The translations under genes were made by a program, and so were the position numbers. A stretch of DNA of 64,000 bases from Deltaproteobacteria bacterium. Lineage in GTDB: Bacteria > Desulfobacterota > DSM-4660 > Desulfatiglandales > HGW-15. Of this stretch, positions 1,839-2,615 are shown piece by piece. Under the pieces are notes generated by a model. It searched no databases. It worked only from the letters and a program-made list of their open reading frames with translations, and was not told the origin of the DNA. The stretch is taken from positions 303-64,302 of the forward strand of contig JAFGFM010000144.1 in assembly GCA_016931115.1 (NCBI GenBank), in the 5' to 3' direction. The stretch's first letter is position 1. Every line of letters starts with the position of its first letter.

Positions 1839-2084
1839 TCACTTCCCGGAGGTAAGGTTTTCTGAAATTTTACTTTTCCTGATTTTTATATATTTCTCCC
1901 TGTTGCAGGCGGATGCCCTATCTGAATATTCCTCTGAATATACCAGCTTCCATGGCCGTTTTGTTTTTGTATATAGAGACCGGCCCTGATTATGCCTTTC
2001 CAATCGGTCTTCAATATTACGTGTTGAGCCCACATAATAGGTACCATCAAGTTCTGACTGAAGTATGTAAACATAGTAGGGCAC
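1839..2084 (-). CDS. Small stand-alone GIY-YIG nuclease (UPF0213-like); C-terminus probably replaced by IS end
   Basis: YYVYILQS..TYYVGST..RLERHN..YTK..PWKLVYSE..A..RE..IK pattern; GTG start. Confidence 0.88.
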   Translation of the reverse strand: MPYYVYILQSELDGTYYVGSTRNIEDRLERHNQGRSLYTKTKRPWKLVYSEEYSDRASACNREKYIKIRKSKISENLTSGK

Positions 2085-2115
2085 GCTTGAATACCTTCTA
2101 CTGGATTTGAGAAAA

Positions 2116-2151
2116 GAAAAAAGCCTGTTTCATTTGAAACAGGCTTTTTTC
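2116..2151. terminator. Bidirectional intrinsic terminator after tRNA-Asp
   Basis: GAAAAAAGCCTGTTTC-ATTT-GAAACAGGCTTTTTTC perfect hairpin with A and T tails. Confidence 0.85.
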
Positions 2152-2158
2152 TATATGG

Positions 2159-2235
2159 TGGCGGGAGCGACGAGACTCGAACTCGCGACCTCCGGCGTGA
2201 CAGGCCGGCGTTCTAACCAACTGAACTACGCCCCC
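2159..2235 (-). tRNA. tRNA-Asp (GTC)
   Basis: Reverse complement GGGGGCGTAGTTCAGTTGGTTAGAACGCCGGCCTGTCACGCCGGAGGTCGCGAGTTCGAGTCTCGTCGCTCCCGCCA; cloverleaf, encoded CCA. Confidence 0.97.
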
Positions 2236-2267
2236 GCAATACACTAATCTAAACAATCTTTGTCGCA

Positions 2268-2316
2268 GCGACCTTCCCGCTGCAAGCGGGGCGTTCTAAC
2301 CAACTGAACTACGCCC
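2268..2316 (-). repeat. Partial tRNA-Asp copy with substituted anticodon arm
   Basis: 2290-2316 identical to 2207-2233 (27 nt); anticodon arm replaced by CCCGC-TGCAA-GCGGG; no T arm or 3' acceptor. Confidence 0.85.
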
Positions 2317-2386
2317 GCGTACTCCTAATTTTCAAGGAGACTTGATACCCTTTTTAAAAGGCTTAATCAAGCTTTTTTTAAAAAGG

Positions 2387-2462
2387 TGGTGGGCGGAACA
2401 GGGATCGAACCTGCGACATTCGGCTTGTAAGGCCGACGCTCTCCCAGCTGAGCTATCCGCCC
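2387..2462 (-). tRNA. tRNA-Val (TAC)
   Basis: Reverse complement GGGCGGATAGCTCAGCTGGGAGAGCGTCGGCCTTACAAGCCGAATGTCGCAGGTTCGATCCCTGTTCCGCCCACCA. Confidence 0.97.
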
Positions 2463-2518
2463 ACTTTTTTATTACTCTACCTTGTTAAGGTCTTTTTCTA
2501 TTTTGAAAGAACTAATTA

Positions 2519-2571
2519 CTGCGATATCCCCGCTTACAAGCGGGACGCTCTCCTGACCTGTCTATCCGGCC
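2519..2571 (-). repeat. Degenerate partial tRNA-Val copy with substituted anticodon arm
   Basis: CTGCGA..GACGCTCTCC..CTATCCG match 2411-2462; anticodon arm replaced by CCCGC-TTACAA-GCGGG. Confidence 0.75.
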
Positions 2572-2615
2572 GGGAAAGCCGCTTTTCTCTCATATGACCA
2601 CCTTATTGTCAAGTA

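Follow-up and report, generated by a model that had tools for sequence, protein, structure and literature searches.

The 64,000-nucleotide stretch of DNA analyzed here (the window) belongs to contig C193 of a 5.18-Mb genome in 240 contigs. Behind lon, its minus strand carries, in this order, a front half of tRNA-Val, the complete tRNA-Val gene, a front half of tRNA-Asp, the complete tRNA-Asp gene, a terminator-like inverted repeat, and a GIY-YIG open reading frame (ORF). Alignment places a native, conserved leader with a TTGACA box directly behind lon (positions 2572 to 2612); in relatives with an unsplit gene, tRNA-Val starts directly after this leader. Here it is followed by the Val front half (2519 to 2571), apparently the old front of the gene, which comprises an acceptor strand, a decayed D arm, a signature hairpin standing for the anticodon arm (2528 to 2545, by pattern search), and a variable loop. 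An inserted spacer and a new tRNA-Val leader (2463 to 2518), both missing in two genomes of the genus (G004 and G008), lead to the working tRNA-Val(TAC) (2387 to 2462; ARAGORN; Rfam, 71.4 bits). The Asp front half (2268 to 2318; 21.6 bits against the Rfam tRNA threshold of 29 bits) likewise includes a signature hairpin for the anticodon arm (2275 to 2291, by pattern search) and a variable loop, and ends without T arm and CCA. The spacer and leader of the working tRNA-Asp (2236 to 2267, by alignment), tRNA-Asp(GTC) itself (2159 to 2235; ARAGORN and Rfam), and the inverted repeat (2117 to 2150; sequence inspection), which is kept in kin, complete the series. Promoter and terminator scans of the locus made no call, with no full promoter in the leader by consensus scan and no terminator at the inverted repeat, and tRNA was the only family above threshold in an Rfam search of the locus.

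Both front halves lie upstream of their own tRNA, as the preliminary description had it. They are on the minus strand, and the offsets are 83 (Asp) and 109/108 (Val). The first 27 bases of the Asp front half (2318 to 2268) agree with tRNA-Asp at 26 positions (27-base exact match to tRNA-Asp, genome-wide E value of 1.8e-8); a 17-base hairpin then stands for the 17-base arm, followed by the variable loop and 2 further bases. In the Val front half (2571 to 2519), 18 of 26 front bases match tRNA-Val, the D stem is broken, and the hairpin (2545 to 2528) has 18 bases for 17, so that the offset changes from 109 at the front to 108 behind the hairpin, where 8 of 9 bases match. Both hairpins have the form [T/C]CCCG-loop-CGGG[A/G] and sit in register with the replaced 17-base anticodon arm; CCCGC-N3-8-GCGGG occurs four times in the 64-kb window versus 0.02 expected. 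According to ARAGORN and Rfam, both front halves are incomplete cloverleafs with neither a T arm nor a 3' acceptor strand. The two spacers, of 32 and 56 bases, contain no tyrosine integrase, and full units elsewhere contain the GIY-YIG ORF only. A motif in the Val spacer (about 2500 to 2515, minus strand) is kept in seven kin, and we take it to resemble the boxA of rRNA antitermination. A short inverted repeat opens the Asp spacer (window positions 2250 to 2270, and L008), and 9 bases of this spacer recur where the Val spacer of G010 starts, so that the Asp unit in the window may derive from a Val unit.

The ORF encodes a single-domain GIY-YIG protein of the tRNA-Asp clade (Pfam PF01541, E value of 1.8e-18; alignment and tree). 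Residues Y6, Y17, G19, R27, H31, and E63 are invariant in an 11-row alignment that includes the window protein, and structure comparison also returned GIY-YIG fold matches. NCBIfam and a protein atlas gave it no name beyond GIY-YIG; the group I intron endonuclease model TIGR01453 reached 21 bits (cutoff, 56) over model positions 4 to 32 of 215. The nearest solved structures by sequence and fold are UPF0213 proteins and Slx1 (PDB 1zg2, 1ywl, and 7cq2); the titles of the UPF0213 structures give no function, and Slx1, which is larger and needs Slx4, cuts branched DNA. Only the first 73 codons are native (1866 to 2084, minus strand). The listed ORF takes its final 8 codons and its stop (1839 to 1865, minus strand) from the end of an insertion sequence (IS), and contigs of other sequencing runs that carry the IS end stop at 1866. 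The IS transposase (Pfam Transposase_29; 84 to 1808, plus strand) interrupts the gene and lies outside the element. The 3' end of the gene, with the closing hairpin of intact relatives, was found neither at the other IS end (contig C214) nor elsewhere in the genome. Since the truncation also removes a predicted C-terminal helix (residues 72 to 84), this copy is probably inactive, and the element in the window is a remnant. A second, broken Asp-clade gene, again preceded by the terminator-like repeat, is located where a contig begins (G000:C62:1-235); the DNA after it resembles the DNA after tRNA-Asp in G005, and it is possibly the displaced rest of the window locus.

The same upstream front half with a hairpin occurs at tRNA-Glu(TTC) and tRNA-Pro(TGG) elsewhere in the genome, so that the shared stem noted for two tRNAs extends to four. 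Upstream sequence of at least 100 bases was available for 44 tRNA calls; 4 of these have a hairpin within 170 bases upstream, versus about 0.55 expected (background, 1.25% of 20,000 random windows), and tRNAs Asp, Val, Glu, and Pro provide four of the five best upstream self-matches in the genome. In a comparison limited to contigs (four DNA contig sets; best word share, 0.23), those of two other public runs, probably close strains, carry the Asp front half joined to the tRNA front with 3 differences, and other contigs have joints that skip the front halves; for six public RNA runs, the word share was at most 0.07. Sister species carry orthologous, diverged Val front halves. On these two grounds, the half-copies at both tRNAs are genuine and no assembly artifact. 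Elsewhere in the genome, a tRNA-Glu has a remnant of the D arm and hairpin start on its 3' side too (G000:C193:125004-125160). An ARAGORN call of tRNA-Ile(AAT) (G000:C231:1318-1403) is most likely a palindromic repeat with several genomic copies rather than a tRNA.

Among the 11 genomes of the genus, the Val locus has a hairpin-bearing front half in five, a decayed remnant in four, and no copy in two (G004 and G008); the five hairpin-bearing front halves have five different loops. In the unsplit allele, found in G004, G008, and other genera of the family, tRNA-Val starts right behind the conserved leader, and in the window exactly this position is taken by the Val front half, with the working tRNA-Val following after the spacer. 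Because the front half sits where unsplit relatives begin the gene, the alignment indicates that it is the old gene front and that the working tRNA is the added part. The added unit would then consist of the hairpin, the variable loop, the spacer, and a new tRNA front half. The unsplit form, being the state outside the genus, appears to be ancestral, and the unsplit alleles within the genus may be collapses between direct repeats. Direct repeats of a regenerated tRNA and a displaced fragment are seen at loci of this kind, as are present and absent alleles at a homologous site among kin. The fragment had been regarded as the copy; the Val alignment, and locus L350 described below, reverse this, with the working tRNA rebuilt behind the insert.

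The loop of the Val hairpin had been described as lying on the opposite strand relative to the tRNA, and it is indeed the reverse complement of the tRNA-Val loop over 8 bases. However, 13 of 113 Asp-type hairpin interiors have the form CTT..AAG, and the Val-type hairpins of sister species have other loops. The Val loop supplies an in-frame stop in the window (TAA), L002 (TGA), and L008 (TAA), and none in L006 and L011; a genuine interior inversion was found in L034. The inverted loop may therefore represent an inversion, a stop-bearing gene end, or chance.

The stem was also said to form the core of two further repeats in the window, with stems at 17207 to 17220 and 51130 to 51143. The stem is indeed common to these repeats and the tRNA-borne hairpins, but the repeats appear to be of the NTS/dRS3 type, a separate family with its own Ssn-type nucleases, rather than products of tRNA rewriting. 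The repeat at 51130 matches the SRM consensus; the one at 17207 misses the strict pattern by its tag and fits a looser one, whereas the two tRNA-borne hairpins match the published SRM and NTS patterns on neither strand. The genome contains 81 SRM matches and two Ssn-type genes, and 40 of its 78 CCCGC..GCGGG stems are of the NTS/dRS3 type. A third small GIY-YIG clade (G000 C79 and C220) has its own palindromic repeat, which also lies directly behind the CCA of four tRNA-Ser/Pro genes (G000 C79, C91, C97, and C133). By sequence, then, small GIY-YIG proteins of three clades occur in the genome, and a separate hairpin family goes with each clade: Ssn/NTS, the tRNA-Asp type, and this third clade.

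Intact relatives of the window gene encode single-domain proteins of 84 to 85 amino acids (aa) with the conserved C terminus LVRTSR, whose codons lie in the D arm of tRNA-Asp and the opening arm of the hairpin; the stop codon lies inside the gene-end hairpin in 11 of 12 distinct hairpins, and a tRNA 3' half follows on its 3' side. Among the best 80 of 573 GTDB hits, 45 genes end in the hairpin (versus 9 of 617 control windows) and 52 have an ARAGORN tRNA beside the gene on the same strand; the hosts among these 80 include bins of Nitrospirota, Bacteroidota, Ignavibacteria, Clostridia, and Patescibacteria. Among the best matches, the closest named relatives of the window nuclease are mostly Desulfobacteria and related deltaproteobacterial bins. 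A class of 12-mer "fragments" was left out as evidence, chance matches being likely. Some relatives' genes run into an intact tRNA-Met or tRNA-Glu instead, and tandem arrays of the unit occur on both sides of tRNA genes. In the same host order, an Asn clade has its gene behind tRNA-Asn with its own version of the hairpin site. In this clade (L200, L206, L214, L221, and others), the hairpin takes the place of the 5' strand of the anticodon stem alone, as far as the anticodon, and the C-terminal peptide of the proteins, likewise derived from the D arm, is a different one; in the genome studied here, the first codons of such a gene lie behind tRNA-Asn (G000:C78).

In a protein tree, small GIY-YIG proteins clustered by tRNA type (25 label changes versus 72.8 when shuffled; a quick tree of 152 proteins and 87 columns, with kin non-independent in the permutation tests). 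Three proteins from NTS-flanked genes, used as a stand-in for Ssn (cd10448), group together on a branch (support, 100; length, 1.03) that is separate from the Asp clade with the window protein. The genes are under purifying selection (pN of 0.21 versus pS of 0.87 in 55 pairs, with pS saturated), and their presence is patchy, with many broken genes among kin. A gene that goes through spread, decay, and loss would be expected to show such a combination.

Further evidence ties the upstream front halves to this gene. The Asp-type hairpin pattern occurs in 26 of 149 genomes of the class, with none for the reversed control, so that such copies exist in relatives as well as at other tRNAs of this genome (4 of 44). 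An Asp-clade gene (by score) was present in 11 of 20 genomes with an upstream front half versus 16 of 129 others, with hand-assigned sets, kin that are non-independent in the Fisher test, and many contigs that end at these repeats. A metagenome scan gave 118 loci, 10 of them duplicates. Among 52 scorable loci, 34 carry front half, tRNA, and gene and 18 carry front half and tRNA without the gene; a further 20 loci end too soon behind the tRNA, 23 lack an intact tRNA, and 5 have 3'-type copies. Eight loci were flagged as a front half followed directly by the gene; of these, 1 is a 3'-type array, 2 are cut off, and 5 reach an intact tRNA-Asp, in the order front half, hairpin, nuclease gene, tRNA. 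The latter five are full-length versions of the short upstream units of the window. Unit lengths are about 70 to 180 bases, or about 350 bases with the nuclease gene.

The hairpins themselves point the same way. Upstream and gene-end hairpins are more alike within a locus than across loci (10 loci; P = 0.00035) and identical in 3 of 14 loci versus 0.5% across loci; the two sets may overlap, and kin are non-independent. Locus L118 has an identical, odd 24-base hairpin interior at both ends. Upstream hairpins are biased to the stop frame of the gene end (8, 3, and 0 of 33). The inner stem pairs are Watson-Crick in 58 of 60, 54 of 60, and 42 of 52 hairpins, versus 27, 21, and 16 in shuffled data, with four pair types each; a larger set again showed covariation (107 of 113 and 93 of 102 paired). 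In L350, the front half comes from a different tRNA-Asp gene than the inner tRNA, and its junction with the hairpin falls precisely at the anticodon stem base; both sides of this locus carry the same hairpin. The 3' piece that follows the second hairpin of L350 matches the inner tRNA, not the old front half, and for this reason a clean two-ended insertion into one gene is not general; an acceptor-stem comparison of 11 further rows, made to see whether both halves stem from one gene, was uninformative. A fixed cut distance was considered and discarded: 33 of 67 copies left the tRNA sequence 2 bases past the variable loop, and in a larger set many differ at one base and then match on. Nor is the spacer, for the most part, a plain duplicate of the native leader, with only the last few bases agreeing at some loci. 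An Asp-like hairpin fragment in L323 precedes a tRNA-His that is itself followed by a GIY-YIG gene.

Val, Glu, and Pro copies come without a nuclease gene of their own. The Glu pattern matched 11 of 61 genomes of the family, 7 of them genuine on inspection, and Pro front halves were found in 3 of the 61; no GIY-YIG gene lies near Glu and Pro front halves, up to 1.5 kb on each side. In 401 genomes of the phylum, the Val pattern gave 11 hits; 2 of them are genuine Val front halves outside the genus, each in a Val-Asp operon that also has an Asp-type gene or what is left of one, a placement that would fit action of the neighboring enzyme. A Val-specific nuclease gene was not found in the class, where Val copies lie beside Asp-type genes or remnants only. 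A loose pattern over all tRNA types was rejected as mostly noise (46 matches versus 24 in the control). The signature stem also occurs inside other repeats and, in nine cases, replaces or enters T arms. Loci L031, L048, L092, L105, L124, L278, and others have it in the T arm or T loop of 3'-side fragments, and L260 and L262 have 3'-side Glu units made of a terminator, a D-arm piece, the hairpin, and a tRNA 3' half, as gene-less miniature units.

We consider it likely (probability of about 0.7) that the copies were left behind by a nuclease mini-element that targets tRNA genes and has no integrase, and the gene-end hairpins and their recurrence support the earlier proposal of a hairpin-linked process tied to a small GIY-YIG family. 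The proposed element comprises one gene for an 84-aa GIY-YIG nuclease and a signature site; in this site, a TCCCG-loop-CGGGA hairpin lies between the 3' strand of a D arm of tRNA origin and a variable loop, giving a tRNA look-alike devoid of an anticodon arm. The sequences show two placements. Behind a tRNA gene, the order is tRNA, terminator, nuclease gene with the hairpin at its end, and tRNA 3' half; in front of one, it is old front half, hairpin, nuclease gene or mere spacer, and new front half. Either placement leaves one intact tRNA. By analogy with Ssn nucleases, the enzyme may bind the hairpin site in single-stranded DNA and nick close to this site, or close to the anticodon stem-loop of a tRNA gene, which has similar flanks, after which host recombination via the tRNA-derived arms would insert or amplify the unit. 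Gene-less units could have moved in trans or be deletion remnants. This single-strand route, with the hairpin recognized as by SsnA, falls a little short of even odds in our estimate. A double-strand homing cut, of which the hairpin would be the immune version, is unlikely: a covarying stem with tRNA flanks exceeds what immunity needs, and the protein has no separate DNA-binding domain, and for these reasons we favor the single-strand route. The element-bearing locus keeps the anticodon arm of its tRNA unchanged, so that resistance of the element's own allele is not evident from sequence. It is possible, if somewhat doubtful, that these units are a mobile element class of their own, about 350 bases long and free of integrase and transposase. 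A single-domain nuclease of such a class would read a tRNA-shaped site in single-stranded DNA, with clades per tRNA type, rewrite tRNA arms into its own hairpin, swap in foreign tRNA genes, and mobilize gene-less units in trans.

The hairpin could instead be an independent, REP-like microelement moved by an Ssn nuclease or an HUH transposase, with the GIY-YIG gene as its passenger or adopter. Such a microelement would account for a stem that is common to the NTS repeats, abundant in this genome, and present in T arms and inside other repeats, for Val, Glu, and Pro copies that lack their own gene, and for the like beginnings of all four hairpins of the genome. However, neither strand of the tRNA-borne hairpins fits the SRM pattern, the hairpin contains the stop codon of the gene, hairpins of the same locus match, and 45 of the best 80 genes end in one, which makes an independent microelement decidedly unlikely. 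It is quite improbable that the copies are kept as functional RNA, whether as tRNA-mimic decoys, processing aids, or stabilizing precursor leaders. Their position between the native leader and the tRNA leads one to expect cotranscription, the stem covaries, and several lineages keep copies; yet the copies are patchy in the genus (5 of 11 with the hairpin, 4 decayed, and 2 none), and the Val copy of the window has a broken D stem, with neither T arm nor CCA, so that the decoy or processing reading of the preliminary description finds little support.

Decayed tandem tRNA duplicates or integrase att scars that acquired hairpins by chance are very improbable. Tandem duplication and island integration do leave direct repeats of tRNA halves, but here the same stem occupies the same position in four different tRNAs of this genome and in many phyla, no integrase lies between the halves (about 70 to 180 bases, or about 350 bases with the gene), and viral contigs gave no exact match of the Asp pattern. 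The earlier conclusion that the copies are no normal att scar is supported. Its premise that att duplications normally copy tRNA 3' ends needs one correction: 5' tRNA fragments, if rare, are known for integrase islands (159 of 3919; PMC4383910). An assembly artifact, to which a 240-contig assembly and loci that often end contigs might point, is practically negligible given the Asp copy in contigs of other runs and the diverged orthologous copies in sister species.

Compared with known systems, the units appear as a cross between Ssn/NTS and a tRNA-targeted island, departing from both, and from SegB, in their defining traits. Ssn proteins are site-specific single-stranded DNA nucleases associated with NTS/SRM (dRS3, CGTC-1) hairpin repeats (PMC11893778; PMC3733652), and their authors liken the gene-repeat unit to a mobile element (PMC11893778). 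CGTC-1 repeats have been equated with dRS3, in a paper whose available text does not contain "GIY" (PMC3733652). Both systems have a single-domain GIY-YIG protein of <100 aa, a hairpin with a TCCCG/CGGGA core, and loop-variable repeats. The present proteins, in contrast, belong to another clade. Their hairpin has no CGTC tag, lies outside the SRM pattern, and is mainly confined to tRNA genes; it overlaps the stop codon and has D-arm and variable-loop sequence of a tRNA on its flanks. The main text of the Ssn paper does not mention tRNA; its supplementary tables could list members of the present clade (PMC11893778).

SegB, a free-standing GIY-YIG homing endonuclease of T-even phages, is also found beside tRNA genes, where it cuts and drives recombination-dependent tandem amplification in cis and trans; in the part of that account available, this phage gene shows no isotype preference and no hairpin-swapped tRNA pieces are described (PMC13096335). 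The present genes, in contrast, are chromosomal, encode a single domain (85 aa) without a separate DNA-binding domain, and are sorted by tRNA type. In tRNA-targeted islands (Islander), as here, the target tRNA is split and restored by element sequence, the opposite end is recognizable by a displaced 5' or 3' fragment, and tandem arrays occur (PMC4383910). The present units differ from them by having no tyrosine integrase, by a length of only about 70 to 350 bases, and by a fragment that carries a foreign hairpin for the anticodon arm. REP-RAYT/REPIN and IS200/IS605 elements share hairpin marking, nonautonomous copies moved in trans, and single-stranded DNA as a likely substrate (summarized in part in PMC11893778), but use an HUH transposase; with a hydrolytic GIY-YIG nuclease in its place, the host must supply the joining step. 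The literature searched gave no description of a combination of tRNA half, hairpin, and nuclease like this one, in which subscription journals were mostly outside the scope ("hairpin" and "nuclease" are absent from the available text of PMC9897764). The system is widespread and apparently undescribed in that literature.

These observations provide very common, unannotated small GIY-YIG proteins with a testable job and target, and they account for tRNA gene fragments of a widespread kind that is a source of confusion in annotation. They also suggest how essential tRNA genes could be split, amplified, and exchanged among lineages with no integrase involved. Since the sequence reveals gene, hairpin, and target alike, the substrate of each enzyme can be predicted, as for the Ssn family, which is under development as a source of tools for single-stranded DNA. 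If the present units indeed form a class of their own, they would constitute a large natural set of small, structure- and sequence-specific single-stranded DNA nucleases with known targets.
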